Shown here: positions 1 through 30,300 of the stretch, in pieces | Numbering within the stretch: position 1 is the first letter of the stretch | Layout: every line of letters begins with the position of its first letter | Notes under the pieces: model-generated | Told to the model about the DNA's origin: nothing | The model's database searches: none | The model's input: the letters and a program-made list of their open reading frames with translations, nothing else | Made by a program: the position numbers and the translations under genes | From: Amphiscolops sp. MND2022 | Lineage: Eukaryota | DNA length: 64,000 nucleotides | Assembly (NCBI GenBank): GCA_964187785.1 | Contig: OZ076409.1 | Coordinates: 4,404,001 to 4,468,000, forward strand | Direction: 5' to 3'

Positions 1-1186
1 ATAGATCAAGCTGAGAAGTAAGTAAAGATGAAGAAATATTTTGTTCATTACTGTGATCAAAAGGTCTTGAAATGGTTCGTCCTGATGAACAAATTCTTCT
101 GTTTCCTAGCGTGTAATTCGTCTTCACTGTGATGATTCAGTGAAATATTCATTCTCGATGAAGTATTATGTTCATTGATTTTTTCCAAGATGTTTCAATA
201 CATTCTTTTTTAGTTGTTTGTGCAGATTTTTTCTGTAAATTTCAAATGTGCAGAATTTTGAAAGCTAATCCTTTTCTCAGTCGACTTCATTTGTTTGAGT
301 GTGCTCTTTTGATTGGACAGTGTGATGAGTGACGTCATTTCTGAAAGCTGACCGACCGACAAAGGGAGAGCTAGTTCTCAATACTTTTGGTAGTGCTCTT
401 ATTTTTATGTTACGTCATACATGTATCAAGAAATCACGAGTTAAAGTTTGTTCACTGAGATGAACATGGCCAATAAGAGATTGAAATCATCGATCGTTAA
501 ACAGCCACGCCGTGCAGTCGAAGAGCTAAAATCATTAACAAAAATCAAAAACATCAAAGGCCCAACTAAAAAAAAACGAATTGTTCACTGTGCACCAGTC
601 TTCACAAAACTTCAATTTACTTCAGAGTCTTGAACAGAGCAAGAACAATATTGGGCGAATCTCTTTCGGTGTTTGATTCCACCTTACAATAGTACTAGAC
701 GTGTACGGTTGAACGGAGAGAGTCAAGAGAAAGAAAAGTGTTAAGAAAAGAAAGTTACTTACGTGATTGGAGAAGGATCGTCTTCAGTCGGGTGTTGCTT
801 GATAGGTTAATTAGTGGTTAATGATGTTCAAGAATATGGTAGTGTTGTTATTACATAAATGGTCGCACATATTCCAATTGAAATGTAAAATTTTCCTTGG
901 CTTTTTTCACATTTTCCTAAAATCCTACTTAGATTTCATGTCAACCTCCTAACTGCTCACTCAGTGGCTCATTTAGAAAAACTCTACCAGGTAGAAAAAA
1001 ATGCAATTAGTTATCTACCTTTCCAAAATTCATTCTACCTGCTGATTTTGTTGTCAATAAGAACAGAAATTACCGATAATATGAGATTAATAACAAGAGT
1101 ATTTTGAGTTTAAATTGTGGTGAATATCCGAAGTCTCACAAGGACCACACACTATTCACCACAACAGCGCTGAATGGAAGCTAGTT

Positions 1187-1799
1187 TTAAAGGATGCCGA
1201 TCATTCTGTAGTGGTACCACTGTGGTAGCTGCTCTGTGGAAAGGGCAGTTGCTGGCGCGATGCTGCATATGTGGAACTTTTTGTTCTCAACAGCAACCCT
1301 CTTGTCAATTGCAGGGTTGAACCATCCTTGGATGGTGAAGCCTTGGGACCCGTTCACACTTGCAATCAGTTTCTCAACAGCGGCGTCTAACTCGAACTTC
1401 GAGTTTTTCATTGTCGCCCTTAAGGCAACGAGCAGTCGGGGTGACAAAGACATTGGTGAGGGCGTTTGAATTCACTCGGAAAACATCACCGACATTGTTT
1501 GTTTCCGTGGTGAGCTCGGGGCACGTGAAGGCAAGGGAGATAGCCCAGGTTCTGTCCTGGTTTGTTTCGAGGCGCGGGCATGGATCGTGGTAAGTCTGCC
1601 CGTCACAAAGCCTAGATAGACAGACACTTTCGGCAACCAATGCGGAGTATAGCTTAAGGGCTTTCGTGGTAAAGAGAAAACCGCCGTAGTTGCTGTTCTC
1701 CACGTCGAATGGCGGCGGAACGGAAACATTAGTCGGAGCGGCAATCGGTACCAGGGGCTCATTCGTTGTCACTAATGGGGTAGAACTGGTAATTGACAT
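1187..1799 (-). pseudogene. Frameshifted gene of unknown function (about 200 aa if ORFs 1374-1799 and 1187-1453 are joined)
   Basis: Two overlapping minus-strand ORFs in a GC-richer block, with Cys-rich CLSRLCDGQ..PCP. Its 5' leader and first codons are those of the adjacent tandem-array unit. Family not recognised. Confidence 0.45.
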
Positions 1800-4700
1800 T
1801 TCCGTGGGAAGAAAACATTTTGAATCTGAAAAATGAGGAAATTAGAATCTAAACTGTATAAACAGCAGTATGTGCATAAGTACAATAAATTAGAAGTGAA
1901 ATGTACTCGTGATAATTTGATACTGATAATATACTGGAAGTATTTTGATGAATTTTTACGATTTACTGGCGCTGTTATATTCTAATCTGTGCTTTTTCTG
2001 AGTTGAGAAGTTGAGGGTATATACGAGATGATTACGAATACTATGAGGTGATGGATTACATCTGATCAGCTCGCAGGGGATAGGAGTTGATTTCACCCCT
2101 ACTGTATACTTACATCTAATACACACATGTATTTATTATTTAGACACAGGTATTGGACGTACTGTAATGCAGGTGTATTGCCTCCCTAACACTGATTTAC
2201 ACTACACTCCCTAACATTATGTCACTCGGAAAAGTGTCATTCATTTAATGCATTCATGGTCATTCATTGTTGAAAGAAAAACGATAATGTTACACAATAT
2301 TGACAATATTATGTACTGACTTCTCATTCCATTTGGAACTATTCATGTTCAGAAACAGTCGAGGTCGAAAATTTTCAGGTGAAAGCCTCTCGGAAACGTA
2401 ATCTGTTGGTAAGGACTGAGAAGATAGAGCTCCCAATCCGGATCACTTGTTCCAATGAATTGGTAAATTTCAAAATACCCATGCAGTGATGACCAATTTT
2501 ATTGAAACAGTGAGCGAGTATAGTAGCAATAATTTTTTGTTTTATGAATTTGGAATTCAACTTTCAGTTTCTGTTCCGTCTCGAAATGAATATCAATTGA
2601 AAAAAGTTCGCATGCATGATCTAATTCCGATAGGTAAATGTTTCCAATCAGAAAGTCAAACAAAGACACAGAACGAAATATTCACTGTGCCCCAGTCTTC
2701 ACAAAACTTCAATTTACTTCAGAGTCTTGAACAGAGGAAGAACAATATTGGGCGAATCTCTTTCGGTGTTTGAATCCACCTTACAATTGTCAACTCCAGC
2801 GACTGAAAACCCTTTTGAGAATGGGTCTCTTAATAAGCTGTGCGTGAAGAAACAACCTGACAATGGTGTCACCGTGCTGTCTAGACACTGGAATGAGGCG
2901 ACCTTTTCTGATTCTCATTAGGTTCAGTTTCGCGTTGCGAGCGGCTCCTTAGGTTGTTTCGCGGTCCTTGCCGCACTGCAGTCCAACGTAGTCTCTGCCA
3001 TGTCATACACCAACGAATGTTCTGTAGCGGTGCGGGCCATCGCTAATCGGTACCATTTTCAAGGTCGTCACAACAAGCTGATTACCGAAAAAGTAGTCGG
3101 CTGTCTCGGGTTCTATATATCAAACCAGCTGTTCCGGACGGTTGCGTAGATTAAGGAAGCGCCTGCTCTGGTATTCCTTCCGTTTTTTTGGGTGCCATCG
3201 TTTGACCAGTTCAGGGAAAGTGAAAGGGTTTGGTAGTAGATGGGGTAGAACTGGTAGTTGACATCTCCGTGGGAAGAAAATATTTTTAATCTGAAAAATG
3301 AGGAAATTAGAATCTAAACTGTATAAACAGCAGTATGTGCATAAGTACAATAAAATAGAGGTGAAATGTACTGGTGATAATTTGATACTGATAATATGCT
3401 GGAAGTATTTTGATGAATTTTTACGATTTACTGGCGCTGTGATATTCTATTCTGTGCTTTTTCTGAGTTGAGAAGTTGAGGGTATATACGAGATGATTAC
3501 GAATACTATAAGGTGATGGATTACATCTGATCAGCTCGCAAGGGATAGGAGTTGATTTCACCCCTACTGTATACTTACATCTAATACACACATGTATTTA
3601 TTATTTAGACACAGGAATTGGACGTACTGTAATGCAGTTGTATTGCCTCCCTAACACTCATTTACACTACACTCCCTAACATTATGTCACTAAAAAAAGT
3701 GTCATTCATTTAATGCATTCATGGTCATTCATTGTTGAAAGAAAAACGATAATGTTACACAATATTGACAATATCATGTACTGACTTCTCATTCCATTTG
3801 GAACTATTCATGTTCAGAAACAGCGGTGGTCGAAAATTTTCAGGTGAAAGCCTCTCGGAAAGTAATCTGTTGGTAAGGACTGAGCAGATAGAGCTCCCAA
3901 TCCGGATCACTTGTTCCAATGAAAGGGTAAATTTCAAAATACCCATGCAGTGATGACCAATTTTATTGAAACAGTTAGCGAGTATAGTAGCAATAATTTT
4001 TTGTTTCATGAATTTAGAATTCAACTTTCAGTTTCTGTTCCGTCTCGAAATGAATATCAATTGAAAAAAGTTCGCATGCATGATCTAATTCCGATAGGTA
4101 AATGTTTCCAATCAGAAAGTCAAACAGTCACAGAACGAAATTTTCACTGTGCCCCAGTCTTCACAAAACTTCAATTTACTTCAGAGTCTTGAACAGAGCA
4201 AGAACAATATTGGGCGAATCTCTTTCGGTGTTTGATTCAACCTTACAATTGTCAACTCCAGCGACTGAAAACCCTTTTGAGAATGGGTCTCTTAATAAGC
4301 TGTGCGTGAAGAAACAACCTGACAATGGTGTCACCGTGCTGTCTAGACACTGGAATGAGGCGACCTTTTCTGATTCTCATCAGGTTCAGTTTCGCGTTGC
4401 GAGCGGCTCCTTAGGTTGTTTCGCGGTCCTTGCCGCACCGCAGTCCAACGTAGTCTCTGCCATGTCATACACCAACGAATGTTCTGTAGCGGTGCGGGCC
4501 ATCACTAATCGGTGCCTTTTTCAAGGTCGCCACAACAAGCTGATTACCGAAAAAGTAGTCGGCTGTCTCGGGTTCTATATATCAAACCAGCTGTTCCAGA
4601 CGGTTGCTTAGATTAAGGAAGCGCCTGCTCTGGTATTCCTTCCGGTTTTTTTGGGTGCCATCGTTTGACCAGTTCAGGGAAAGTGAAAGGGTTTGGTAGT

Positions 4701-7700
4701 AGATGGGGTAGAACTGGTAGTTGACATCTCCATGGGAAGAAAATATTTTTAATCTGAAAAATGAGGAAATTAGAATCTAAACTGTATAGACAGCAGTATG
4801 TGCATAAGTACAATAAAATAGAAGTGAAATATACTGGTGATAATTTGATACTGATAATATACTGGAAGTATTTTGATGAATTTTTACGATTTAGTGGCGC
4901 TGTGATATTCTATTCTGTGCTTATTCTGAGTTGAGAAGTTGAGGGTATATACGAGATGATTACGAAAACTACAAGGTGATGGATTACATCTGATCAGCTC
5001 GCAAGGGATAGGAGTTGATTTCACCCCTACTATATACTTACACCTAATACCCACATGTATTTATCATTTACACACAGGAATAGGAAGTACTGTAATGCAG
5101 GTGTATTGCCTCCCTAACACTGATTTACACTACACTCCCTAACATTATGTCACTCGGAAAAGTGTCATTCATTTAATGCATTCATGGTCATTCATTGTTG
5201 AAAGAAAAACGATAATGTTACACAATATTGACAATATCATGTACTGACTTCTCATTCCATTTGGAACTATTCATGTTCAGAAACAGCCGTGGTCGAAAAT
5301 TTTCAGGTGAAAGCCTCTCGGAAACGTAATCTGTTGGTAAGGACTGAGCAGATAGAGCTCCCAATCCGGATCACTTGTTCCAATGAAAGGGTAAATTTCA
5401 AAATACCCATGCAGTGATGACCAATTTTATTGAAACAGTGAGCGAGTATAGTAGCAATAATTTTTTGTTTTATGAATTTGGAATTCAACTTTCAGTTTCT
5501 GTTCCGTCTCGAAATGAATATCAATTGAAAAAAGTTCGCATGCATGATCTAATTCCGATAGGTAAATGTTTCCAATCAGAAAGTCAAACAAAGTCACAGA
5601 ACGAAATATTCACTGTGCCCCAGTCTTCACAAAACTTCAATTTACTTCAGAGTCTTGAACAGAGCAAGAACAATCTTGGGCGAATCTCTTTCGGTGTTTG
5701 ATTCCACCTTACAATTGTCAACTCCAGCGACTGAAAACCCTTTTGAGAATGGGTCTTTTAATAAGCTGTGCGTGAAGAAACAACCTGACAATGGTGTCAC
5801 CGTGCTGTCTAGACACTGGAATGAGGCGACCTTTTCTGATTCTCATTAGGTTCAGTTTCGCGTTGCGAGCGGCTCCTTAGGTTGTTTCGCGGTCCTTGCC
5901 GCACCGCAGTCCAACGTAGTCTCTGCCATGTCATACACCAACGAATGTTCTGTAGCGGTGCGGGCCATCGCTAATCGGTACCATTTTCAAGGTCGCCACA
6001 ACAAGCTGATTACCGAAAAAGTAGTCGGCTGTCTCGGGTTCTATATATCAAACCAGCTGTTCCGGACGGTTGCGTAGATTAAGGAAGCGCCTGCTCTGGT
6101 ATTCCTTCCGGTTTTTTGGGTGCCATCGTTTGACCAGTTCAGGGAAAGTGAAAGGGTTTGGTAGTAGATGGGGTAGAACTGGTAGTTGACATCTCCGTGG
6201 GAAGAAAATATTTTTAATCTGAAAAATGAGGAAATTAGAATCTAAACTGTATAGACAGCAGTATGTGCATAAGTACAATAAAATAGAAGTGAATTATACT
6301 GGTGATAATTTGATACTGATAATATACTGGAAGTATTTTGATGAATTTTTACGATTTAGTGGCGCTGTGATATTCTATTCTGTGCTTATTCTGAGTTGAG
6401 AAGTTGAGGGTATATACGAGATGATTACGAAAACTACAAGGTGATGGATTACATCTGATCAGCTCGCAAGGGATAGGAGTTGATTTCACCCCTACTATAT
6501 ACTTACACCTAATACCCACATGTATTTATCATTTACACACAGGAATAGGAAGTACTGTAATGCAGGTGTATTGCCTCCCTAACACTGATTTACACTACAC
6601 TCCCTAACATTATGTCACTCGGAAAAGTGTCATTCATTTAATGCATTCATGGTCATTCATTGTTGAAAGAAAAACGATAATGTTACACAATATTGACAAT
6701 ATCATGTACTGACTTCTCATTCCATTTGGAACTATTCATGTTCAGAAACAGTCGTGGTCGAAAATTTTCAGGTGAAAGCCTCTCGGAAACGTAATCTGCT
6801 GGTAAGGACTGAGAAGATAGAGCTCCCAATCCGGATCACTTGTTCCAATGAATTGGTAAATTTCAAAATACCCATGCAGTGATGACCAATTTTATTGAAA
6901 CAGTGAGCGAGTATAGTAGCAATAATTTTTTGTTTTATGAATTTGGAATTCAACTTTCAGTTTCTGTTCCGTCTCGAAATGAATATCAATTGAAAAAAGT
7001 TCGCATGCATGATCTAATTCCGATAGGTAAATGTTTCCAATCAGAAAGTCAAACAAAGACACAGAACGAAATATTCACTGTGCCCCAGTCTTCACAAAAC
7101 TTCAATTTACTTCAGAGTCTTGAACAGAGGAAGAACAATATTGGGCGAATCTCTTTCGGTGTTTGAATCCACCTTACAATTGTCAACTCCAGCGACTGAA
7201 AACCCTTTTGAGAATGGGTCTCTTAATAAGCTGTGCGTGAAGAAACAACCTGACAATGGTGTCACCGTGCTGTCTAGACACTGGAATGAGACGACCTTTT
7301 CGGATTCTCATTAGGTTCAGTTTCGCGTTGCGAGCGACTCCTTAGGTTGTTTCGCGGTCCTTGCCGCACCGCAGTCCAACGTAGTCTTTGCCATGTCCTA
7401 TACCAACGAATGTTCTGTAGCGGTGCTGGCCATCGCCAATCGGTACCATTTTCAAGGTCACTGCAACAAGCTGATTACCGAAAAAGTAGTCGGCTGTCTC
7501 GCGTTCTATATATCAAACCAGCTGTTCCGGACGGTTGCGTAGATTAAGGAAGCGCCTGCTCTGGTATTCCTGCCGGTTTGTTTTTTTTGGGTGCCATCGT
7601 TTGACCAGTTCAGGGAAAGTGAAGGGGTTTGGTAGTAGATGGGGTAGAACTGGTAATTGACATTTCCGTGGGAAGAAAACATTTTGAATCTGAAAAATGA

Positions 7701-9217
7701 GGAAATTAGAATCTAAACTGTATAAACAGCAGTATGTGCATAAGTACAATAAATTAGAAGTGAAATGTACTCGTGATAATTTGATACTGATAATATACTG
7801 GAAGTATTTTGATGAATTTTTACGATTTACTGGCGCTGTTATATTCTAATCTGTGCTTTTTCTGAGTTGAGAAGTTGAGGGTATATACGAGATGATTACG
7901 AATACTATGAGGTGATGGATTACATCTGATCAGCTCGCAAGGGATAGGAGTTGATTTCACCCCTACTGTATACTTACATCTAATACACACATGTATTTAT
8001 TATTTAGACACAGGAATTGGACGTACTGTAATGCAGTTGTATTGCCTCCTTAACACTCATTTACACTACACTCCCTAACATTATGTCACTCAAAAAAGTG
8101 TCATTCATTTAATGCATTTATGGTCATTCATTGTTGAAAGAAAAGCGATAATGTTACACAATATTGACAATATCCTGTACTGTCTTCCCATTCCATTTGG
8201 AACTATTCATATTCAGAAACAGCCGTGGTCGAAAATGTTCAGGTGAAGGCCTCTTGGAAACGAAATCTGTTGGTAAGGACTGAGTAGATAGAGCTCCAAA
8301 TCCGGATCACTTGTTTCAATGAAAGGGTAAATTTCAAAATACCCATGCAGTGATGACCAATTTTATGGAAACATTGAGCGAGTATAGTAGCAATCATTTT
8401 TTGTTTTGTGAATTTGGAATTCAACTTTCAGTTTCTGTTCCGTCTCGAAGTGAATATCAATTGAAAAAAGCTGCATGCATGATCTAATTCCGAAAGGTAA
8501 ATATTTCCAATCAGAAAGTCAAACAAATTCACACAACGGAATATCCACTGTGCCCCAGTCTTCACAAAACTTCAGTTTGCTTCAGAGTCTTGAACACAGC
8601 AAGAACAATATTGGGGGAATCTCTTTCGGTGTTTGATTCCACCTTACAATTGTCAACTCCAGTGACTGAAAAGCTCTTGAGAATTGGTCTCTTAATAAGC
8701 TGGCCTTGTCTTCCCTGAACTTGTCGACAGTTGGCATGTCACAGAAGTCCAACCATGTCTACGTCTACTGCCTTTCCTTCATGGATCGATTGAATGTTGA
8801 CCTATAGGAAAGCAGCGCCAACCTCACACTTTCGCGTTTAATCAACCGTCTCGAGGACGGTCCCTCGTTTCCGTATTTTTTGCGTGAAGACAACGGTGCC
8901 ACCGTGCTGTCTAGTTATTGGAATGAGGCACGATTTTCTGATTCTCATTAGGTTCAGTTTCGCGTTGCGAGCGGCTCCTTAGGTTGTTTCGCGGTAGACT
9001 GTCTCGGGTTCTTTCATATCAAACCAGCTGTTCCGGACTGCTGCGTAGTCCTCGGAAGCGCCCGCTTTGTTGATCCTTCAGGATTGCGTTTTTGGGTGTT
9101 ATTTGTTGACCGATTCAGGTAAAGTGACGAGGTTTGGTAGAACTTGTAAATTTCATCGTGGAAAGAAAACATTTTTAATCTGAGAAATGAGGAAATTAGA
9201 ATCTAAACTGTATAAAC
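1775..9217. repeat. Tandem array of 5 units of about 1.47 kb
   Basis: Marker GAATCTAAACTGTATA recurs at 1845, 3310, 4773, 6238, 7709 and 9199 (periods 1465, 1463, 1465, 1471, 1490). The last unit is more diverged. A detached fragment lies at about 584-689. Confidence 0.97.
7107..7530 (-). pseudogene. Decayed, divergent ribosomal protein uS5 (RPS2)-like frame, present once per array unit (representative copy)
   Basis: Manual translation gives ERETADYFFGNQLVAVTLKMVPIGDGQHRYRTFVGIGHGKDYVGLRCGKDRETT*GVARNAKLNLMRIRKG...HGDTIVRLF...PILKRVF/AGVDNC...PNIVL.LFKTLK, collinear with eukaryotic uS5 motifs. It has a stop and frameshifts. Confidence 0.6.
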
Positions 9218-9932
9218 GGCGAATGCGATTTTGCTAGTCGTCTTTTCTAGTCCGTGTAGAATCAGAGGTGTTGTAAACCGGTATAGTGCTTAATTGCGCG
9301 CTATATAAAGAATTCACATTAGTGGTATAGTTTTATTGATGCAGTAAATGGTTATTGTACCCTGACGCAGAATTATTACTGTGCCTCACAGGGTCCTTTT
9401 TACTTGAGATGGGTCACTCGTAGACTTAGACTTTTTGCCTATCAGGGGTTCATTTGCTAAGAATTAGAGTCAAATTATAAAAAGTTGCGTAGGTTGTCAA
9501 ATCTAAGTAATCGAGGCTGCTGTAATGCGTGTACACAAAATTTGTCAAATGTACCAAAACTTTTTTCGGCCATTGAAACGTAATCTCACTCGTTGATGCT
9601 TCACACAAGTTCCATTCTCTTTTGCTGGGGAAACATACCATTTTCCTAGTTCTGCCTCCCTTTGCTCTAAGATCTTTCCTTCTCAGATGCGGGTTTACAA
9701 TCTGCTATTTTCTTCGGGTGTTTTTTGGAGCATGGGTGATGATAGAATAACTCAAGGTCCCATAGGTTTCAAAAATGAAATGTAGCTCTTCTAGCTCTAT
9801 AAACGGATGCCTTGACTTGAAGAGGTCCGTAAAAACTTCAAGTGATTTCTGAACATGTATTAGCAGATCCTCGTAAATTGAACATCTGCTAAATGGGCCC
9901 ACATTGCTCAATCACCGGAACATGTGTTTCAG

Positions 9933-12900
9933 TTCCCATCAACAATAGTTTGCCACAAATCCGAAGTCATTCATCCAGTGGTTACCGATTCTTTGGACTA
10001 CGAAGCAGAGCTGGCGGTCATAATTGGCAAATCTGGCAGTAGGATTCCAGAGAGCGAAGCTTTTCATCATGTGTTTGGTTACACAGTGGCAAATGACATC
10101 TCCGCTCGTGATTGGCAGAAAAACAGGAACGGCAAACAGTGGATTTTGGGAAAGAGCATGAATACATTTTGTCCATTAGGTTAGAATAGTCCCAAGTAGG
10201 TCCGACTCTTAAGTGACATTTTTTGACAGACCTCATACCTAATTAGGTCCCCCTGTAATTTTCTGATGTTTTGCAACAATTGATGCTGAAAAATCCGCAA
10301 GGTTCCCCCTGTTAGCGCGCCAGGTTCGGTCCAACTTTTGGGCTTTTCGGGTACTGTAAAAGAGAATACTTGACATTTTGAAGTCCTTTTGCTATTTTTG
10401 AACCTTAGACATGGCGCCGACTTGGGCCGTTCCCGGCTTGTTTTTAGACTAATTTTGGCTTCCTTTCTCAGATCCGAGCCATACTCTTCTGTTACCAAAC
10501 TATGTTTTTTGCGCATCCCGGTAATGTGATGTTTCAGGCCCCGGCATCTGCAAGAGAGATCTGATCGCGGATCCGCACAAGCTGGACATCCAGTGCGAGG
10601 TGAACGGACAGCTGCGGCAGAGCAGCAACACCAGTAACCTCATCCACAACATCCCATCAATCATCGCCTACGTGTCCACTCTCATCACTCTGCGAGTCGG
10701 TGACGTCATCCTCACAGGCTAGCGAGCAACTTTGTTTCACGGCTTTTTCCTTTGAAAATAACCAATCAACGTGAAGGATTATATTTAATAATCTGTATCG
10801 TTTAAAATTTCTTGAAATAAATCTTTTCCTTTGTTTTGTTGTCTCCATTCAACTCACTTTGTTGCACTCACACATGGAAAAGTGTGGGGAAAAGAAAAAC
10901 TTTCCTGTTTCTCAACATTTTGCGTCACTTTTTAAAGAATGCCGTCACTTATTTGAAGGAAACGTTTTTCTAATTGTAATGCTCCAAAAATGTGGTGGCT
11001 TCTATTTTTGTAATTGAGCAAACGTTCTGCATCTTTTCAATAAATATTATAAACCAGTAAATATAATTTCTGATCAACCCTTTTGCAGGAGGCTTTGATA
11101 GGAACTAAATGTATCACATTCATGTTGGCAGACCGCAAGTCTGATATTTTTCGTTTGTTAGTATAAGTGCTTTTTCAGATTTTTTTTTCAATTTTTGAAC
11201 GATTGTATTCCGAAAAAACGTCCAGAGATTTCATAATGTGGCTCCTATTTTAGGAATCGGGAAAAATATTTGCCCTTTCTACTAGCATTTGCCAGTTGTT
11301 TTAGAAGGCGGAAAAAATCGAGTAATGCACTCGTACTTTAGTTTTCTTCCGATCTTTCAATGAAAATTCTCAAAAACTGACCATTCTGAATTACTCGAAG
11401 GAAACCATCTACCCTAGAAATTAGGGGTGTGCGGTTAAGGAAAAATTTAAACTCGGTCAATGATCACTCAATGACAGCTTATTAATTGAAAAGTCGGTGA
11501 AAATCAATGAATTCAGAAAAGGTTAAAGAATCATTATTTGCTGTAGAAATACTTTGCACTTTGCCTCCCACTGGAAATGATGTTACCTCCGTCACTCCAT
11601 ACTCTTTCACTTGTTCGGCTGTTCCGGGTATAGATAAATACTCGAGAGCCAAATTTGCGAGTGCCGGAAATTGGACCTGATTTTTTACATAGCTTTCTAA
11701 AAACAGCCAATGAGAATTGAGATTGATTCATTGACTGAAATTTTTCAGCGCTGATAAAACCAATGAATTAATGAATTCATTGGTTTTCATTGAAATATCA
11801 ATTACTCGCACACCCCTACTAGAAATAATTTGGTCAATTTCCTTGCAGGTACCCCGAGTGGAGTGGGAATATTCATGAACCCACCAGGCGAGGCTGCTAT
11901 CATGATTGAAACAAGTGTTTCCTTGACAGTTGGTTGGTTCTATTTGAGCATCCGTCCGTTCCTTTTGCTTTCCACTTTCGATCCACTTTTCTTATTGCTA
12001 CCGAAGCAGTACATGAACAGTACTTTCTGAAGGTTTTTACGAATCGGAAAAAATATCCGACTACTTGTGCAATCGTGACTTTTCTGCCGACCTTTCAATG
12101 AAAATTTCAAATTTCTCAAACCTGTTCATACGAATTTGCACAGTCATCATACACCCAAAGGTGCTCCCGTGTTCACAATGGCATCAAAATAGTATGACTG
12201 GGATGTGAGAAACAAAGCCAAAATTAGCCCAAAAATGACGAAAACACAGCCATTTTTGGATTTTTTTCAATTTTCTCAAAAACTCTTCATACAGTTCAAA
12301 CGGATTTGAAAGAATTTCAATGGAGTCTTTCTATACCATATAAGGGCCACATATGTGCAATTTCATCAAAATCGTATGACTGGGATTCGACCGAATCAGA
12401 ACGAAAAAGACCTGAGCCGACTCCTTTATCGCACATGCGGTTCTGGTTTAGCTGTGAGATCATACATGTATTATTGGGGATGCTACAAATTGCCGATTTA
12501 ATAAACGTAACAAAATAGCCGAATTTGAAGCGTATTAACAAAAAAGCCGATTCAGAGGCATAACAAAATGGCCAATTTTCAATTGAGACGAACTACCAGA
12601 CAGTTAAAAAGAGTGAAATAAACGTACCGGTGCTTCTCTTTCAATTTCCAAGACGAAATTGACAGATGTTTATGAACTGTTGACTTATTTTAAAATGCTT
12701 TTTGAACAACACGCAACAAAAAATGTTCCTAAAAGAATTTTTCAACTTCTATTGTCTTTATATCGTCCATGAGTATAGTATGATCTTCTCTTTTCAAGGT
12801 AGGACCATTTTTTAGTCGGCGGCTTTTCTCGAGAAAAGGGTCGACTATAGTCATGGCTTTTCGTCAGTTTTTTTCGATGCACCTCAACTGTCCAAAATAG

Positions 12901-13604
12901 TTCTACCAAAAGTTCTACCCTTCAATTTTGGCAATCTGTATACTACCTTTGAACAGTAAACGAGTCCCCTTCGACAATAACAACCCATACTGGATTTAAC
13001 GGAAACCGGATATAACGAAATCCGGATATAATGTTTCTTGGAGAATGTTAGAAAAGGGATATAATGGATATAACGTAACCGGATATAACGAAATCCGGAT
13101 ATAATGTTTCTTGGAGAATGTTAGAAAAGGGATATAACGGATATAACCGATATAACGGATATAACGAATCCGGATATAATGTTTCTTGGAGAATGTTAGA
13201 AAAGTGATATAACGGATATAACCGATATAACGGATATAACGAAACCGGATATAACGAAATCCGGATATAATGTTTCTTGGAGAATGTTAGAAAAGGGTCC
13301 CCTTTCGATTTTTAGGATTTTTAGAGTTGATACAAAATGTGGAATACTATGTGTGATACTATGTGGAAAATTGGCCATTTTGTCGGTAATATTTAAAATG
13401 CAATATTTTGACTCGTTGGTTCGTTTCCAGCAAAAGCAGAAAACAAAATTTGAAAACATGTTTTTGAAGTCATTGTTGTCAAATAATGAGGAAAGCAGCC
13501 TTGCCTCTCCTCCCGTAGAGTTTCTGAAGCCTGGAGATACTGTCAAATGTAGCATCGAAGGGATCGGGGAGCTGGAAAACACAATTGTCCAAGAGAAGAT
13601 CTGA
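9933..13604 (+). CDS. FAHD2: Fumarylacetoacetate hydrolase domain-containing protein 2-like, 3' exons join(9933-10179,10538-10717,11849-11887,13519-13604); 5' exons not found in window
   Basis: Motifs [53 protein letters not shown] and FLKPGD. Exons sum to 552 nt with compatible phases; two donors are GC. Confidence 0.92.
11422..11818. mobile_element. hAT-derived non-autonomous element
   Basis: TIR TAGGGGTGTGCG...CGCACACCCCTA and 8-bp TSD CTAGAAAT (11414-11421, 11819-11826). Minus-strand [12 protein letters not shown] resembles the hAT dimerization motif. Confidence 0.85.
12990..13296. repeat. Minisatellite built from GGATATAAC subunits plus ATGTTTCTTGGAGAATGTTAGAAAAG (4 copies)
   Basis: Directly visible tandem repeats of variable period. 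Confidence 0.9.
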
Positions 13605-21300: not shown

Positions 21301-24300
21301 GTGCAGCAAACTTTTCATAGACTTTCATTAGACAATTCAGACAAATTCGAAACTTATCAAAAGTATGTGCTAAGTTTTTGTTTGGTATATCTAAAAAATT
21401 GCAACTTCAACAACATTACTTTGGACCATTTGAAATATTTGCTGAAAGAAGAACCAGAAATCAAATGTGAAATTTTCTACAAGTATTGCAAAGTGTACAG
21501 ATTATTTGTGATTGTTCGCGACTCGCAAGAGCTTATGGGGGCGTTTAGTGACGTGTGTGACTGCTTGGATAGAAGAACCAGATTGCAAAAGTTTTGGTCA
21601 TGCTCAGTTCGCCCTCTCTGGAGCATTTTGAAACTCAAATATTCAGCACAAGCCCACTGGTTCCGTGAATTGGAATGTTGAATGAGAACGAAATTCTTGT
21701 TATTGATTTTGAAGGGTTTGACTACAACGGTCTTATCGTTAAAGAGCTGAGCGTTCACAGTAAAAATTATCAAGAAACCCTACTTTTCAAACCTCCTCAA
21801 GCCTTTTCTACAATTTCAACTATTAACCGCGACTCGATAATATTCTTAACAAAAAGAATACACGGTATTGACTGGGACAGTGGCGTTTACCCTTACACTT
21901 CTATCCATAATTATTTGGCCAGTTTACGACTTCGTTTTCCCAACGCAATTGTTTTTGTCGACGGACATGTGAAGAGAGCATTTATCTCCAACTATTTTAA
22001 AAAAGTTTACATTTTGCAAAGGCTTGGTTGTCCCCCAATTAAACATTTATGTGTTAATGCTGTGGTTTCTTGTGGGAACCACGCAAACTATCTCCCATGG
22101 AATAGTCAACAACAACATTTCTGGCATTGCAGCAAATTGAAAACTGCTGTTGCTTATCAGTGGTTAGAGAGTAGGCGCAATGCAAACCAATCAAAAGTTG
22201 ACTCCAAACTTGAGCGTCTGTGTGTAGGCTGTTCCAAACAATAGTGGTGTGGTGGAAGCAAGCAGGACTTTTGGAAAGAATATGTCAGTAGCTTCTAGTG
22301 CACGAGACTCAAAACTGTCCAGGATGAAAAAGAAACTACCTCCTTTAAACATGCACATTTCCAGGCCACCTCCTCCTGTCGAAATTGACAAAAATTGCCC
22401 GAATCTACCACAAGAAGTGAGGGACGTAGTCAAATCCAAAAGTGTCCTCAGAATTTGGTTCTATTACGGATCCGGGAAAACTGGCTCAAAATTCAAAATC
22501 GATTTGGAAACAAAAGATAAAGAATGGAATTCATTTATAATGCTGGAAACCCAAAGAATATTCGTCTTACCAAGGAGCAAAAGTTTGAACTGACTTTTTG
22601 TGTGATTTGATATAATGCTTTTTTTGTTTTGAAACTAACTCTCTCTGTAGTGTAGTCCTTCGGTGCCTCAATGGCAAGAAAAATCTTGTCTCTGCACCTT
22701 AACCTACCTCAACATTGACAGCCAACAAAAAACTTGTGTAAACGACACACAAGGTCCGGCACGTACTAAGGAAACAATGCATGATGTTCCGCAGTACAAT
22801 TTTTTTTGTATCTTTTGTACTAACATTTTATTTAACAATTTTGAACCATTTCTGATATACAACGTGTGTGTAATAATGTACAATTAATTGGAATTGAATT
22901 TAATAATTTCGTAGTACACTTTTTGAAAAATGGGTTCAGAAACAGTTGATTTACCAGATGTATTATCATGTCAAGAAATTGTGTTCGATAAAGAGAATAA
23001 CGAGAGACCAGCCTGGAAATTTTGTTTTGCTACAAACATACCACGATCGCAAGTTATATTTTTTGTTCATGTACTCTCAGCTTTCTTTGTGATAACATTT
23101 TGTCTGGTGAAACTAATCTTTTTTGAAGTATCATGTGAAGACATGCCATTTTGGACATCACTTTTGGCTGGATCAGTTGGATATCTTTTACCTAGCCCAA
23201 AATTATGAACAAAATCATTTTTACTACAGAAAGAGTTTTCATGTCAGTTGTTGGACCATCTGGATCTGGAAAAACCCGACTGATTTTTTCTATGCTCACA
23301 TCCAAGACCTTTTATCCACGCTTTCAAAAAATTTACTACTTTTATCGCGAGTTCCAACAAATTTTCAAAGAAGTGGAAAAACGGATGAACATCGAGTTTA
23401 TCAGTTGTCTAGATTTTGATTTGATAAAGACGCTTCAGGAGTGTTTGCTGATATTTGACGACTCTTGCGAAGAAATTTACCAAGATAAAAACTTTGCAAA
23501 AATTGCAGTCTCTGGCCGACACAGAGGAATTAACTGTATTTTTGTCAAACATAATTTGTATCATCAAAGTAAGTGGTCACGTACAATTGACCTCAACACA
23601 ACCCACATTATTCTTTTTAATTCTCCTCGTGACACACAGCAAATTGAATATCTTGGAAGACAATTAAACAAAGCTGTATTTCTAAAAGAGTGCTACACAG
23701 ACGCTGTTGCAGAACCACATGGTCATTTACTCATTGATTTGGATCCAAAGACAAGTGAATGTCTACGCTTTTGTTCAAACATTGTAGGACCAGGACCAAC
23801 AATATTTTATTTGCCTTCGTCACAAGCAAAAATTACAGAAATTAACAATGAGCGAGAAAAATTTGCATACACTCAGTCTCTTGGAAAAACTCACTTCAGT
23901 ACAGCAACAAAAACTTCTACGACATTGTGACAAGGAATTTTTGAAATTTTGTTGCGAGTGTGCAATCAATGTTGTGAATGGAACGGTTGGTATCAACGTG
24001 GACGAATTAAAACAGTACGAAATCCAACTCAGATTACTTTGTAAAAGGTCTACCTCCACTAAGGAACGCAGAAAAATTTTAATGTCACCAAAAGGTCTCA
24101 AATTGTTAAACTTCATTATTCGGCCTTGTTTCTGTTACCTGACAGATTGAATTCCGTTATGAACACCCAAGAATTTGTACTTATCCCAAAAAGTTTTTAT
24201 ACTCAACAGAAACACTCCACACTGCAAGTTTTGAGAGACCCAGAAGTTGAACAAAAGGCAAAGTCTCTCACTCTACTACAAAGAAACAATACTTTTCCGG

Positions 24301-27300
24301 ACCCCTCAACAGTAGAAAAGAAAGAAAAAACCAGTAAAGAAAATATTTTAAAGTCTTTGGATATGCTCACAGCGGCACAAAAACAAAGAACGAGAGAAAT
24401 TTTGAACAAAATTGAATCTTCCGAAACAATTGATTTTGATGAAACAGGCGATATTACAGTAAACAAAATTTCCACAAAAATTTCGCTCTCAACATTTCTT
24501 TATAATCTGCAGCAACCCAACAAAAACCTAACTGATCCTTCATACTCTATCATTCTTAAAGAATTGATGGTAAATCCTAATTTAGTGCCTAACCGGAACG
24601 CCAAAAACATTTTGAACCCTAGTACAACAAGAAAGAGAGCAGAACCCACTCGAGACGAATCAGATGCCAGCAACGAAGAATCTGAAGAAATTGCTAAAAG
24701 CAAAGCGTCTGGATCGAAAATATGGACATCTCTCGGAATCTGAAAGAAAAACCCTCGAGAAACTTTACACACAAGGTCCAGCTGCTTATGGTAGCGTTGA
24801 AAACTTGAAAAAAGCTAGTAAGCTTCCAAAAAGGAAAGTGGAAACATTTTTGGCTCAAACAGACGCTCATACAAAATATCACGCTCCCAGAAAAAAATTT
24901 CCACGATTGAAGGTTCAAGCTTACAGAATCAATGAGATTTGGTCGATAGATGTTGCTTATATGGACAAATTAGCAAAATACAACAACGGTGTGAAATACT
25001 TGCTAGTTGCAGTTGATGTACTATCGAGATTCCTACGGGTTGAACCAATGAAAACAAAAAGTGCAGCAGATTCAACAAGAGCATTCAAAAGAATGATAAC
25101 AAAGTCCATTCCCGAAAAAATCTGGTCAGACAAGGGATCAGAGTTTAAAGGGGAATTTAAGCAGTTCTGCGATTCCAAAAACATTGACATTTACAGCACT
25201 CATAGTGAGACAAAATCTGCTTTTGCAGAACGTAATATTCGTTCTCTAAAAAACATTATATATAAACATTTGGAAAAGAGATGGTCTTATCAATACATCA
25301 AAAAACTCCATGACTTTGTTGACATCATAAATTCACGAGTAAACCGAGTGACAGGATTGGCTCCAAAGAAGGTTTCAGATAAAGATGTACCTCATTTGAT
25401 TTCTCTGGTTTCTTACAAGTCCACTAAACAGCTACGAGTGCCGAAATTCAGAGTCGGTGACTTTGTGAGAGTGTCAAAAGAAAACTTACCCTTCAAAAAA
25501 GGTTACAAACAGAATTTTACCGACGAAATTTTTCAAATTGAAAAAATCGCAACTCTCAATCCCCCAACTTACAACTTACTGGACTCTGAGAAGGAAAAAC
25601 TCTTGGGCAAGTTTTATCAGCCTGAATTGATTTTGGTGAAAAAGAAAAATGGACGAATTTGAAGTTCATTTATTATCCACAGCGTCATTAGAAATTTTTG
25701 GTGACAATACATTGGCAGCATTCAAAAATCAACTCCCACAAAATATTTCCCTGGAAGGCGACTGGCGTGTGGCTCTATCAGAAATTATTTTTCCCTCGGA
25801 AATTAATAACGTTTACACAGACTTTTTTTATTACGTTCACACTACCAAAAAGAAGGAAGATGAAGAAAACCTTGACGAAATTGATGAAGAAAAAGCAGAG
25901 GAAATTGAAATTGACTCTGAACCAGTTGTTCCATATTATCAAAAACTAAAGATAAGACCTTCGATGTACAGTCATATCAACAACCTACTTTTTGAAATGC
26001 GTTCAAAAGTAAATTTACTCACGGAAGACGGTAAACATAGATCCACCGAAAATGGCCTAGAAATTAAATTTGATGCATATGCTGGCTACACTTTTCCTAA
26101 CAGAAACATTCCCAACCTACTTGGATTCAAGGGAAAAGAGACTGCTTTTGGTATTCATATAGGAAACGAAGACATCCTGAACAGTAGATGGGTTGTGAAT
26201 GACTTTCCGGTGGATTTGATTTCTGGCATTAGTCTAATTCTTGTTTACACTGATTTGATTGAATATCAAAACACGGGCGACGTAAAAGCACCCGTTTTGA
26301 GAATCATTGATAGTGGGAAACGTGTTGAAAGTGGCAAGGTCGTGACAACCCAGAATTTGGAAACAAGATCATTTTTTGATTTACAATACAAGAAACTGTT
26401 GGTTCAAAATATTCAAACAATAAGCATTCAACTCAGAACAGAGACTGGGATCCTGGTACCCTTTTGTGGTAAAGGTCAAGTTGTTTTGACCCTAAAATTT
26501 AAAAAATTCGCCTAATGGAAGACTATTACTCAAAGCAAGTGTATTTACCCCATTTCGCCAGTTACAACAGACAACGAGGTAGTGGAATTGGTGCACTGGC
26601 AGCCGGTATTGGCCGAGTGGCTTTACCCTTTGCAAAAAATTTTATTTTACCTGCTGCAAAAAAAATTGGCAAAGAATTGCTCGTTCAAAGTGTCCCTGAG
26701 GTCTTTGATGTTATTGCAAAGCGAAAATCGCCACGTGAGGCTGCTAAAACAGCTATGAAAAAGACGATAAAGAAGCAGATTGGTGGAAAAAGCAAACGTT
26801 CTTCAAAGAAACGAAAAACCATTACGAAATCAAAACGCAAACAGAGAAGTCGGTCCGATTTCTTTTCAAAAGTCAAAAATGTTGCCTAATATTTTACCAC
26901 TCGAAGCTTCACATAGTTCCCTCGACATTTTTGAGCGATCACCTGTTTTGATTACATTTGACTCTTCCTTTGAACAAAAGATTGGCCCGATTTACTCCCC
27001 CAATGGACCAACATTGGAATTTGAAGTTGTAGGAGACCGAAATAATTTTTTGGACCTACAAAAAATTTTTCTCGAGATAAAATGCAAAATTAAACAAAGC
27101 GATGGAAATGACTTACGATATGATGCAACGGATGCAACACAAACAGACACTCCTATTTTTGTGAATAATACATTACACTCTCTATTCTCCGAATGCACTG
27201 TTACTGCTAATGGAATAAAAATTTCCAATGCAAACGGTGTTTACGCACACAAGGCCTTTATTGAAACCGAATATTCGAATGGCAAGGAAGCCAAAGAAAC

Positions 27301-30300
27301 ATGGTTACGTTGCCAAGGATATACATATGAGCAGCATCCTGGGAACAGTACAACAACTCCATTTACAAACAGAGAATTGGAGTCGAGACAGTCTGGAGAA
27401 TTAACATTTTTTGGAAAAGTTGCAGCTGATGTATTTTCTTGTGATAAACATTTACTGAGTGGAGTGACTTTGCGAATTTCTTTTGTCCGTTCGAAACCAG
27501 AGTTTGTTTTGATTCATGATGACGTTGCAAAAAATTACAAAATTACCATTACCCAAGCCAATCTTTACGTCCGGAAAATGACAGTTTCTGAGCAGGTTTT
27601 TATAGCCATAGAGAAAACTCTGACAAAAACTCCAGCTCTGTATCGGTACACAGAGGTTCTACCCAAAACTTTTCTCATTCCGACAGGTAGTCGCAGTTGG
27701 AGTAAGGAAGACGTTTTCAGTCGAGAACCAATTCGACGATTCGCTTTGGCGCTCGTCAGTAATGCGTCTTTTCTTGGTTCAAAAGACACAAATCCATTTC
27801 ATTACCAAAAACATAACCTAAACGAAGTTACTGTTTACCGGAATGGATACCCTGTTGCAGGAACTCCTTTGGCAACAGATGATCTAAAACGAGTTTACAT
27901 GTCAACAATGGATGCTCTCGCCTTTGGTCATCATGGACATGGAATTCCTTTCGCCGACTATGCTAATCATTTTGTAATGGTGTTTGACCTGACTAGCACC
28001 CAACAAGCATCTCATGATTTTCTTTATCCTGAGCTCACTAACGCAGCCATTTCGCTCGAGTTGAAGTTTTCAGCAGCGCTGGCAGTGAACACTGAGGTGT
28101 TTCTGTTGGGCGAAAAAGCATCAACAATTTACATTGACTCTCATAGAAAAGTCTCCAAAAACGTCATGTTAAACCCTACCACTTGAAAAATGGATGAAGA
28201 TTACATTGCCCACCTAATAAAAAACAGCCCAAGATTGAAATACAAGTTTGGAGGAATTTATCCCGCAGACAAGTTTCCTATCCTATTACCCAACAACACT
28301 TTTGTAATTGTCAATTCAGAAAACTCAAACAGCGCTGGGAAACATTGGATTGTTTGGAGCAACGTGAAAGGTACTTTCAACTTTGCAGATCCCCTTGGAC
28401 TAGACCTATTTTTACATTATCCTAATATTGCTAAAAGAATCTCCGCGATACCAATCCAAGTTCAGCAGACATTAAAAGATGCCACAAAGACGCCGTTACA
28501 AAATCAAAATTCAAACTTGTGTGGTTTGTATTGTATTTATATTGCTCATTTTTTGTTAAGTTCGTATTATCCATTGATTTCTTACATTTCTGAAACTGAT
28601 TTGCTTCGCTTTGTAAAAACTCTCATGTAATTTAATGTTTAATTTCAAACATTTTTATTCTCAAACAATTTCATTCAGAGAAAAGGTTAGTACAGGCACA
28701 AAATTAAGCGATCCGTGACCAGTTTGAAAAATATCAGCAATGAGTAGGAAATGACCACCATACGGTCCAAGCATAACATTTTCCAAGCGTTGTATTGTTC
28801 CTTGACTCAACCCAGAGCTGACTTGCACAGCCTTGTCACATTTTTGAACAGAAAAACAGATTGATGGCAAGAGTTTCTTTGGGTTTCGATTAGGAGGGTC
28901 ACAATTGTATTGAACGGCTTGATCCAATTTTTCAAAAATTTCACCACATATTTCCTTTTCATCACTGTTTGCAATTAGTAAGGCGTAGGTTGAATATAAA
29001 CATGGTAATAAATAACTTTTGGGTTGCCCTTTATAATTTTCACCAAAACACTGGGCCAAAACATGATAGTGATTGTCTGGCAAAGCGTTACAAAGCCCAT
29101 CATGCACAGGTGAGTGTAAGCCAATGGAAATAACAACATCTAATGGGAAGTCCACGCCAGCTTTGGGTTTTTCCTTGAATAAAAAGAAGCGAAAGTTTTT
29201 TCTAAATTGCTTAAAGTAATCGGGAGAACGCTCAAACATTGCTTCCACCATACTTTCTAGGATCAATATTCTCCTTGTTTTCTCCGTCTACGTTGTCCCC
29301 GTCATCCTCCTCCGCCACAGAATCAACAAATGAGGGTTTCTTAATTTTTTTGCACTTTTTTGTAACTTTTTTGATATTCGACGGTTGTAGAACTGATTTT
29401 CCTTTCCACAGTAGAATTTCAAACTCTTCTTTTGTCAACGTGATTTTTTGAACCAGAGCAAATTCAGCGTCTGGCTTCTTTTTGAAGAGTTTTAGAAACA
29501 CGTAGGTTCCTGTATGCTCGTATGTTTTCACCGTTGCTCGCAATATTCTGTTGGATTTTTCTGATAAGTCACAGTAATAGTCTCCAAAATCCTCGTCCTT
29601 AGCAAGAGTAAAATCACCAGAGAACATTCTGAATGTTGGAAACAAAATCAAAAGTATGAAGAACCTGGTAAATATTGCAAGGTCAATGTCTGAGGTGGGC
29701 GGGCTTTTATGGTTCAAGGTTTGGCCACCCTGCTTTAATCTTTCATGTAAACAACAAACGCTTGCACCGCCGACTGATAAATCAAGATCATTACCACCCA
29801 CGTTGATCTTTCAAGTAGACAGCAAACGCCCAGGCCACGACACTGGTGTTAAAATTCAAAACATCTGAAAAATCAAAATAGACTCGATGTAATAATTCAA
29901 AACACATTGTTACCATGTGGAAATCGGACCACCGTGAGAAACAAAAAACTGTAGATTCACTAGTGTTCAAAACTCAAGCCGTTATTCGATAAATTCGCTA
30001 CCGCTCAAACAGTTGGTCTTGTCCAAGTCGACGATTCAACTATGGCTACTGTCTTTACACATTTTACAAGCAAACGCTTCATCATTTATGAAACACAATT
30101 TCAAAAAGCGCTCTCAATAATTGAACAGATGAGGTCTGACGAAAATGACCGGTGGGAAACAAAGCAACATATTCTGTTACCAAACATGGTCTATCACAAG
30201 TTGAGCAAACAACCGACTGAAAAGACGATTCTGGAAAGAAAGAGAAAGATTGACTCTGTGGACTGTGAAGCAGCGTCTAACTGGGATATAGAAAGTCTTC

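Follow-up and report, generated by a model that had tools for sequence, protein, structure and literature searches.

The tandem array at positions 1,775 to 9,217 of the window (the whole stretch of DNA analysed here, 64,000 nucleotides of contig OZ076409.1) is very probably a fossil, amplified on the spot, of one gene of a Maverick/Polinton virus-like transposon. That gene is related to uS5 (RPS2), the core ribosomal protein placed at the mRNA entry channel and assembled during 40S biogenesis. As the original prediction had it, the array consists of five tandem units of 1.47 kb, each with a minus-strand uS5-like frame broken by a stop and frameshifts; repeat families, alignment and codons all agree on this, and translating each unit in three frames recovers the uS5-like motifs that had been quoted. 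The array and its neighbourhood are laid out as follows.

1775..9217, no strand assigned: tandem array of five head-to-tail units (direct-repeat families and whole-unit alignment)
1775-3239, 3240-4702, 4703-6167, 6168-7638 and 7639-9217: units 1 to 5 (direct-repeat families)
605..688, minus strand: isolated piece of the uS5-like gene, its final 28 codons, 79% identical to an intact relative; last copy of a second array lying upstream of the window
695..1767, no strand assigned: dispersed repeat of an unrelated transposable element, between the 605..688 fragment and the array; 81-85% identical to full-length copies on contigs C13, C2 and C1, with many partial copies

The direct-repeat families place successive unit starts (1775, 3240, 4703, 6168 and 7639) 1465, 1463, 1465 and 1471 bp apart, and similarity to the array begins some 56 bp before the first of them, at about 1717-1719. 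In the whole-unit alignment, units 1-4 (1463-1471 bp) share 96.2-98.2% identity, and unit 5, of 1579 bp, shares 82.9-84.2% with them. Over their initial 300 nucleotides units 1 and 5 do not differ at all (100% identity), and the array contains mosaic stretches. The 1.47-kb array escaped Tandem Repeats Finder, whose maximum period is 500. The whole unit has no second occurrence in the 1.07-Gb assembly, so the array comprises five units only. Next to it lies a second array, related to the first: a 119-bp piece (window 575-693) recurs in 8 further copies, spaced by ~1750 bp, at C1:4383873-4396243.

Matching the array by tblastn with an intact relative of 187 residues delimits one broken copy of the gene in each unit.

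2702..3218, minus strand: uS5-like pseudogene of unit 1, with TAA and TGA stops, three frameshifts and a late stop
4164..4709, minus strand: uS5-like pseudogene of unit 2, with the lesion set of unit 1
5630..6146, minus strand: uS5-like pseudogene of unit 3, with the lesion set of unit 1
7095..7617, minus strand: uS5-like pseudogene of unit 4, where GGA replaces the TGA stop; remaining lesions as in units 1-3
8565..9110, minus strand: uS5-like pseudogene of unit 5, with the common TAA stop, stops of its own, an internal deletion and an insertion; neither the first frameshift nor that near residue 153 is present
6941..7106, minus strand: element-derived 3' flank of the uS5-like gene in unit 4 (the remaining units have equivalent flanks), about 72% identical in DNA over roughly 164 bp beyond the stop codon of its relatives

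Every unit carries the TAA stop (ETT*G). The TGA stop (VGV*HG) is found in units 1-3, the codons of unit 4 reading GGA at that place, as had been noticed beforehand. Units 1-4 have three frameshifts in common, two around residues ~20-45 and the third near residue 153, together with a stop four codons short of the C-terminal end (KTLK*IEVL). Unit 5 displays two private stops, has lost residues ~51-93 and, in keeping with what was first seen, contains additional sequence between 'QHGG' and 'QLIKRP' while missing the first frameshift. Read from these frames, the array would yield no uS5-like protein. Differences between the lesions had been taken as a sign that the array descends from an intact gene. 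This does not hold: with TAA in every unit, the common ancestor of the array was already broken before amplification, and it is in Polintons that the intact relatives reside. The other half of that account, amplification and decay of the gene, fits well with units 1-4 differing by 2-4% and sharing their lesions.

The nearest of these intact relatives is an open reading frame of 187 residues (L035:4696-5256), which matches the window copies at 52-65% protein identity, with E-values of 1e-38 to 3e-43 per unit. The host's own RPS2, present at two loci of contig C5 with one intron each, matches each unit at 27% over 125 residues (E 2e-5). This weak direct match, and the want of an intron in the window copies, are what one would expect if RPS2 had long ago given rise to a processed pseudogene, which decayed neutrally before being duplicated in tandem. 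We regard this scenario as exceedingly improbable, since intact frames elsewhere in the genome are two to three times closer, and since the phylogenetic tree joins the window copies to L035 and another intact relative, L020 (SH-aLRT 95), within a clade of 12 rows (100), and sets host RPS2 far away, within the canonical uS5 clade (98). Two further observations run against it: a dN/dS of about 0.19 relative to the intact gene, unlike neutral decay, and DNA identity to the relatives that continues past the stop codon into the flank listed above (window 6941-7596 aligns with L035 5423-4744, and the L035 frame ends at 5256). By this kinship, the window copies are not a pseudogene of host RPS2, and the warning that they were no recent processed copy of it was well founded.

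Profile searches gave a divided answer to the question of uS5 membership. The window pieces by themselves stay below the Pfam cut-offs: single frames reach E 0.1-0.15, with 12.5 bits for Ribosomal_S5 and 12.6 bits for Ribosomal_S5_C, and unit 4, with X at its stop, rises to 18.3 bits (E 0.0023) for Ribosomal_S5, under the cut-off of 27.1. The intact frames, in contrast, exceed both gathering scores, with 35.7-46.9 bits for Ribosomal_S5 (against 27.1) and 24.4-31.6 bits for Ribosomal_S5_C (against 21.5). Membership of the window copies in uS5 thus appears to come by way of their kinship to these frames (E 3e-43). A profile of the family, compared with solved structures, matches eukaryotic uS5 chains over profile positions 21-194 (E 4e-41), and every one of the top 60 among its 175 matches is a eukaryotic uS5. 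The AlphaFold model of L035:4696-5256 (pLDDT 91, pTM 0.84), submitted to Foldseek against the PDB, retrieves 40S uS5 chains at all top 50 places, with E-values down to 2.7e-17 and TMq of 0.79-0.83; the structure prediction that had been proposed as a check is therefore favourable. By profile and model alike, the intact frames are uS5 homologues with the uS5 fold.

This family is a large one. The proposed tblastn of the genome, followed by inspection of flanks, found open frames of at least 170 codons at 118 of the 148 non-host matches, hence at least 118 loci. The genes are intronless and encode basic proteins (pI 9.3-10) of 176-216 residues. Like eukaryotic uS5 they contain PF00333 and PF03719, in the same order; they retain the archaeo-eukaryotic N-terminal segment (W-x-P-x-T...G-R-L) and the GD..G..GLG motif, and the predicted fold superposes with a TM of about 0.8. 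They depart from it in lacking the RG-rich N-terminus and the C-terminal tail, and in having an inter-domain loop shorter by 7-11 residues; the PAPRGTG loop is absent from the subfamily of the window and retained in others. Host RPS2 has roughly 250 residues or more and is only 27-43% identical to a family which, unlike it, is intronless, occupies well over a hundred loci and is carried in mobile elements. For two public members of the family (ENA/Logan records), identity to whatever was scored in this genome does not go beyond about 50%.

Copies of these carrier elements on different chromosomes are 96-99% identical across more than 6.8 kb. One of them could be delimited: it measures 17.4 kb, has terminal inverted repeats of 111 bp (88% identity) with ends AGTAGT...ACTACT, and is flanked by a 6-bp target-site duplication, CACAAT. 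The end motif is found at the gene-proximal terminus in three subfamilies, at 6/6 ends inspected. Within the elements the uS5-like gene always comes last before one of the inverted ends. It points inward, converging on the polymerase, from which an array of about 84-bp repeats separates it. The delimited element encodes an rve integrase (PF00665, 46.7 bits against a cut-off of 32.6, L041:3426-4490), a Pox_A32 packaging ATPase (PF04665, 23.5 bits, cut-off 22.8) and an adenain-like protease candidate (Peptidase_C5, PF00770) which, with 17.8 bits, stays under its cut-off of 21.3. Candidate frames for the major and minor jelly-roll capsid proteins, of 477 and 286 residues, stand at the expected places; neither has a Pfam match, and they are 64% and 37% identical to frames of a partial Polinton which the window itself contains, separate from the array and with no uS5-like gene found in it.

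23.2-28.6 kb: partial Polinton of the window
23196-23930: A32-type ATPase, PF04665, 27.9 bits
24616-25662: rve integrase, PF00665, 43.4 bits
28190-28627: adenovirus-type protease, PF00770, 23.6 bits, above the cut-off of 21.3

The polymerase is a putative protein-primed DNA polymerase of family B. Its open frames, of 1472-1483 residues, score below the Pfam cut-offs (DNA_pol_B_2 20.3 bits against 25.8; DNA_pol_B 15.5-16.1 bits against 23), have no meaningful match by sequence in the PDB and, in PHROGs, give weak endonuclease-VII matches only, at the N-terminus. Relatives at 45-57% identity include PF03175 in 10 of the 120 matches listed, and one is named a DNA-directed DNA polymerase. With 4759 first-look candidates in the genome, the element is very abundant. 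Among the matches listed, a uS5-like match lies within 6 kb of the polymerase at 27 of the 46 places scored, mostly at 1.4-3 kb, and the linkage holds in all four subfamilies examined with their flanks, the most divergent one tested included. The gene is kept across polymerase lineages that share only 55-60% protein identity, and it is swapped as a cassette between element subfamilies.

We may ask whether the gene belonged to the host in the first place, the array being a decaying cluster of a lineage-specific uS5-like family subject to tandem birth and death, from which Polintons acquired their copy. Further tandem clusters of family members do exist, at C6:51.32 Mb (2.68-kb period, 99% identity), C7:42.17 Mb and C3:58.05 Mb, and about 30 kb of two such clusters contain no Polinton core gene, yet many frames there are intact; it follows that not all members of the family are element-borne. 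The C7 cluster, however, bears the ~84-bp repeats found beside the gene in Polintons, which suggests that the clusters derive from elements. The polymerase linkage of every subfamily examined, and the non-coding 3' flank common to window and element copies, point in the same direction. The present uS5 tree cannot be rooted and thus indicates no direction of transfer. On this evidence a host-owned origin seems to us quite improbable. An origin in a virus-like element had been anticipated: a paralogue with a long evolution behind it, carried by a virus or mobile element, is what the TIR-bounded, TSD-flanked Maverick/Polintons holding the nearest intact relatives, and the dN/dS of about 0.19, now make of it.

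Beside the window array there is neither a Polinton core gene nor an inverted end, so that its derivation from an element rests on the kinship of the gene and on the 164 bp of common flank. Accepting this, a plausible course of events can be proposed. A fragment comprising the uS5-like gene and about 164 bp of 3' flank would have been stranded at the locus, from an element subfamily that left no close surviving copy, the best DNA match of the array to surviving copies being 72-73%. The gene would have been killed at least by the TAA stop common to all units, and then, with about 800 bp of unrelated DNA (the part of each unit lying outside the gene and its flank), copied in head-to-tail order, presumably through unequal crossing-over. 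Unit 5 may stem from an older split, and units 1-4 from recent rounds; the order of duplication can only be inferred, because the array-wide alignment of unit 5 is poor. The array might also have been retained as a trap, in the manner of a piRNA cluster, its transcripts feeding the small-RNA silencing of Polintons. This would be compatible with a fossil, and there is circumstantial matter for it in that the array is a tandem fragment of so abundant an element, with a second related array adjoining. Yet the array, 72% identical to its nearest living counterparts, would serve poorly as a source of guides and, units 1-4 being young, selection is not needed to explain the array; we hold such a role to be very improbable. 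As an amplified element fossil, the array resembles the macrosatellite-type arrays that arise from fragments of transposable elements in its kilobase-scale head-to-tail units, 96-98% identity, older diverged edge unit and mosaic stretches, and differs from them in having only five units, in being unique in the genome and in adjoining a second related array.

The living genes are another matter. Between the window copies and L035, dN/dS is 0.19-0.21 (with dS about 1), and between L035 and L020 it is 0.11; two close pairs give 0.46-0.66, from few changes. Values of about 0.1-0.2 indicate that the uS5-like gene evolved under constraint. What it is kept for can be put in terms of chances. It may be a virus-encoded mimic of uS5, docking at the uS5 site of the 40S or pre-40S particle or titrating uS5-specific factors, to which we would grant somewhat less than an even chance. 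It might instead be a general RNA- or DNA-binding protein, such as a binder of dsRNA or a virion core protein, to which we would give a slightly smaller chance. A more complete proposal, tentative and on the whole rather unlikely, is that a lineage of animal Maverick/Polintons encodes its own diverged uS5, held under purifying selection and exchanged as a terminal cassette, which would act on host translation either by replacing uS5 at the mRNA entry channel in newly made 40S subunits or by sequestering the assembly factors specific to uS5. If true, this would be the first virus-borne uS5, a core and non-exchangeable ribosomal protein on a virus-like element.

Such a gene has precedents of several kinds. 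The main text of Barreat & Katzourakis (2021, PMC8097293) describes Maverick/Polinton 'accessory regions', with diverse frames outside the core modules near an inverted end, in elements of near 17 kb with (AGT)2//(ACT)2 ends and 6-bp target duplications; the uS5-like gene likewise lies outside the core modules and adjoins the inverted end, in elements of the same ends, duplication length and size. The word 'ribosomal' is absent from that main text, and the accessory genes it presents differ from the uS5-like gene in that the latter is conserved across polymerase lineages and swapped as a cassette. Phage-encoded ribosomal proteins (bS21, bL12, bL9 and others) were described in 2019 and shown to enter ribosomes, with emphasis, in the text available, on loosely bound, exchangeable ones (PMC6375957); eL40 of a giant virus was presented in 2024 as the first ribosomal protein from a eukaryotic virus (PMC11499249). 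The main texts of these two articles do not contain 'uS5'. With those cases the present family has in common, as far as these texts describe them, a host-type homologue on a virus-like genome under purifying selection, entry into ribosomes having been seen for the phage proteins. It differs in its animal host, its integrating carrier and the core position of uS5. Among the openly accessible articles searched, none was seen to describe a uS5 homologue carried by Polintons or by any virus, and a 2026 preprint on small eukaryotic DNA viruses does not use 'ribosomal'. None of 74 pattern matches among IMG/VR viral contigs is a relative of the family. Relatives in metagenome contigs were considered as element-type genes and rejected: at all 80 loci retained, out of 166 relatives, host RPS2 gave a better score than any protein of the element type, and no polymerase or integrase stands beside uS5 in them, so that they are ordinary uS5 genes.

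For annotation, the consequence is that many of the genome's 'RPS2-like' matches represent genes of elements, or the fossils of such genes, and no paralogues belonging to the host. The interest of the window array itself is confined to its having led to the family and to its showing how fragments of elements can seed tandem repeats of kilobase size. The family itself provides a testable handle for distinguishing elements that tune host ribosomes from a ribosomal fold reused, for example, in nucleic-acid binding. If it proves to be a conserved, selected gene of animal Maverick/Polintons, the range of viral ribosomal proteins would widen to include those of virus-like transposons that integrate, as well as a core protein of the mRNA entry channel.

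The tandem array of the window consists of five head-to-tail units, delimited by direct-repeat families and starting at 1775, 3240, 4703, 6168 and 7639, and the minus-strand uS5-like frame that the original prediction placed in each of them is present in every one. Units 1-4, of 1463-1471 bp, are 96.2-98.2% identical to one another in whole-unit alignment; unit 5, of 1579 bp, shares 83-84% identity with them, and despite this overall figure its initial 300 nt are identical to those of unit 1. A TAA stop (ETT*G) is found in all five units, and we can therefore understand the ancestor of the amplified array as already dead. Three frameshifts and a late stop are common to units 1-4; a TGA stop interrupts units 1-3 at a site where unit 4 has GGA, as had been read from the sequence beforehand, and unit 5 has stops of its own, has lost about 43 codons and carries an insertion.

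These copies are not decayed host RPS2, a view already taken in the original prediction. Their protein identity is 52-65% to an intact ORF of 187 aa at another locus of the genome (L035:4696-5256, about 72% identical in DNA), against 27% to host RPS2, and in a tree of 58 rows they group with L035 and a second locus, L020 (SH-aLRT 95), apart from host RPS2, which lies within the canonical eukaryotic clade (SH-aLRT 98). Because the tree comes from a quick method and contains long branches, its deeper branching order is unsure. In a whole-genome scan with Pfam Ribosomal_S5, the two top matches (107.6 bits) correspond to host RPS2, present at two loci of contig C5 with one intron each. These loci, at C5:874121 (L001) and C5:66370840 (L002), are almost alike in coding sequence and share the position of their intron, and a 214-aa transposon-like ORF adjoins the latter. 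The other 148 scored matches, among 347 first-look candidates, reach 34.5-51.7 bits; 141 are free of internal stops, and 118 occupy stop-to-stop frames no shorter than 170 codons (median 206).

That the intact ORFs are genuine homologues of uS5 is borne out by Pfam, profile match and predicted fold. Both Pfam S5 domains exceed their cut-offs; a profile of 11 family members matches eukaryotic uS5 chains over almost its full length (E 4e-41), including the archaeo-eukaryotic N-terminal segment; and the best 50 Foldseek matches in the PDB to the AlphaFold model (pLDDT 91) are all 40S uS5, with a TM-score of about 0.8. The proteins are basic (pI 9.3-10) and, unlike host RPS2, have neither an RG-rich N-terminus nor a C-terminal tail, and their loops are shorter.

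These ORFs are genes of Maverick/Polinton elements, copies of which from different chromosomes are 96-99% identical across more than 6.8 kb. The features concerned are as follows.

Maverick/Polinton features in the genome and in the window
C1:89194813-89212243, element delimited end to end, 17.4 kb, with 111-bp inverted ends starting AGTAGT and a CACAAT target duplication
Window 23196-28627, partial Maverick/Polinton with A32-type ATPase, rve integrase, 291-aa ORF, 471-aa capsid-candidate ORF and adenain-like protease
Window 33741-34010, polymerase remnant (33% identity), after the partial element

The delimited element codes for an A32-type ATPase, an rve integrase and a large polymerase, relatives of which carry PF03175; the adenain-like protease scores below cut-off there and passes it in the partial element of the window. 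These features agree with the criteria given in PMC8097293. The four subfamilies whose flanks were examined all share one arrangement: polymerase, an array of ~84-bp repeats, the oppositely oriented uS5-like ORF, and the inverted end. Among the matches listed, a scored uS5-like match lies within 6 kb of the polymerase at no fewer than 27 of the 46 scored places, a minimum, at least one place scored as a miss having proved to have such a match. The ~84-bp repeats (L021 3284-4163, L035 5653-7112, and L038/L040), invariably between polymerase and uS5-like gene, show a 28-codon periodicity in translation; they also fill a cluster of uS5-like ORFs at C7:42.17 Mb. Near the N-terminus of the polymerase, residues 59-101 of the L029 ORF give weak endonuclease-VII-like matches (PHROGs E 0.001-0.004; Pfam E 0.085), and many public relatives of the polymerase carry PF02945. 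A genome-wide polymerase query returned 4759 first-look candidates, and many of the 46 scored places hold an uninterrupted frame (1472-1483 aa) with 99-100% identity; the elements are very abundant and seem to have been active recently. Further tandem clusters of family members lie on contigs C6, C7 and C3; some of these contain intact frames but no Polinton core genes, so there is a low probability that some of the family belongs to the host.

As a product of such elements, the array of the window would be a stranded fragment, copied head to tail via unequal crossing-over. Element-like DNA in each unit is restricted to the gene with some 164 bp of adjoining 3' sequence; the remaining ~800 bp do not resemble element DNA, neither a Polinton core gene nor an inverted end adjoins the array flanks, and the whole unit has no second occurrence in the 1.07-Gb assembly. 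The window's own element, separate from the array and with genes 37-65% identical to those of the delimited one, has no detected uS5-like gene. A second tandem array, of period ~1750 bp, lies upstream (C1:4383873-4396243, plus window 575-693); each of its units bears 119 bp from the 3' end of the uS5-like gene (eight copies outside the window and one inside), 90-95% identical to the window units. About 660 bp past the five-unit array begin exons of a gene with a fumarylacetoacetate-hydrolase domain (PF01557, 103 bits; 9882-10184 and 10525-10722, plus strand), and 13007-13254 holds a 75-bp tandem repeat (3.3 copies, 94% matches) made of GGATATAAC-like 9-mers.

The dN/dS ratio is 0.19-0.21 between the in-frame part of the window copies and L035 (dS ~1.0), 0.11 between L035 and L020, and 0.46-0.66 in two pairs of very similar copies, which differ by few changes. 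This indicates that most of the divergence stressed in the original prediction accrued while the gene was functional. At L029 (C1:102.53 Mb) and L031 (C11:34.93 Mb) the polymerases are 73-77% identical in DNA and the uS5 modules (positions 4300-5442) 97-98%; with modules so much closer than polymerases, the gene travels between elements as a cassette, and this mosaicism implies a recent exchange between subfamilies.

In a set of 1.84 billion representative proteins, no more than about 14 clusters outscore canonical uS5. For two of them the identity to any sequence scored here is just ~50%, so they derive from other organisms; scans of viral and metagenome contigs gave no family member. A search of the main text of open-access papers turned up no account of a uS5 homologue from Polintons or viruses, and 'uS5' does not occur in the main texts of PMC6375957 and PMC11499249, the two key papers on virus-encoded ribosomal proteins.

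The N-domain of uS5 is dsRBD-like, and this, together with the basic charge of the family proteins and the fixed position of the gene beside the inverted end, would fit a general nucleic-acid binder. On the other hand, conservation of the ribosome-embedded N-terminal segment, retention of both domains and strong constraint speak for a protein that may still fit the uS5 site or its partners.
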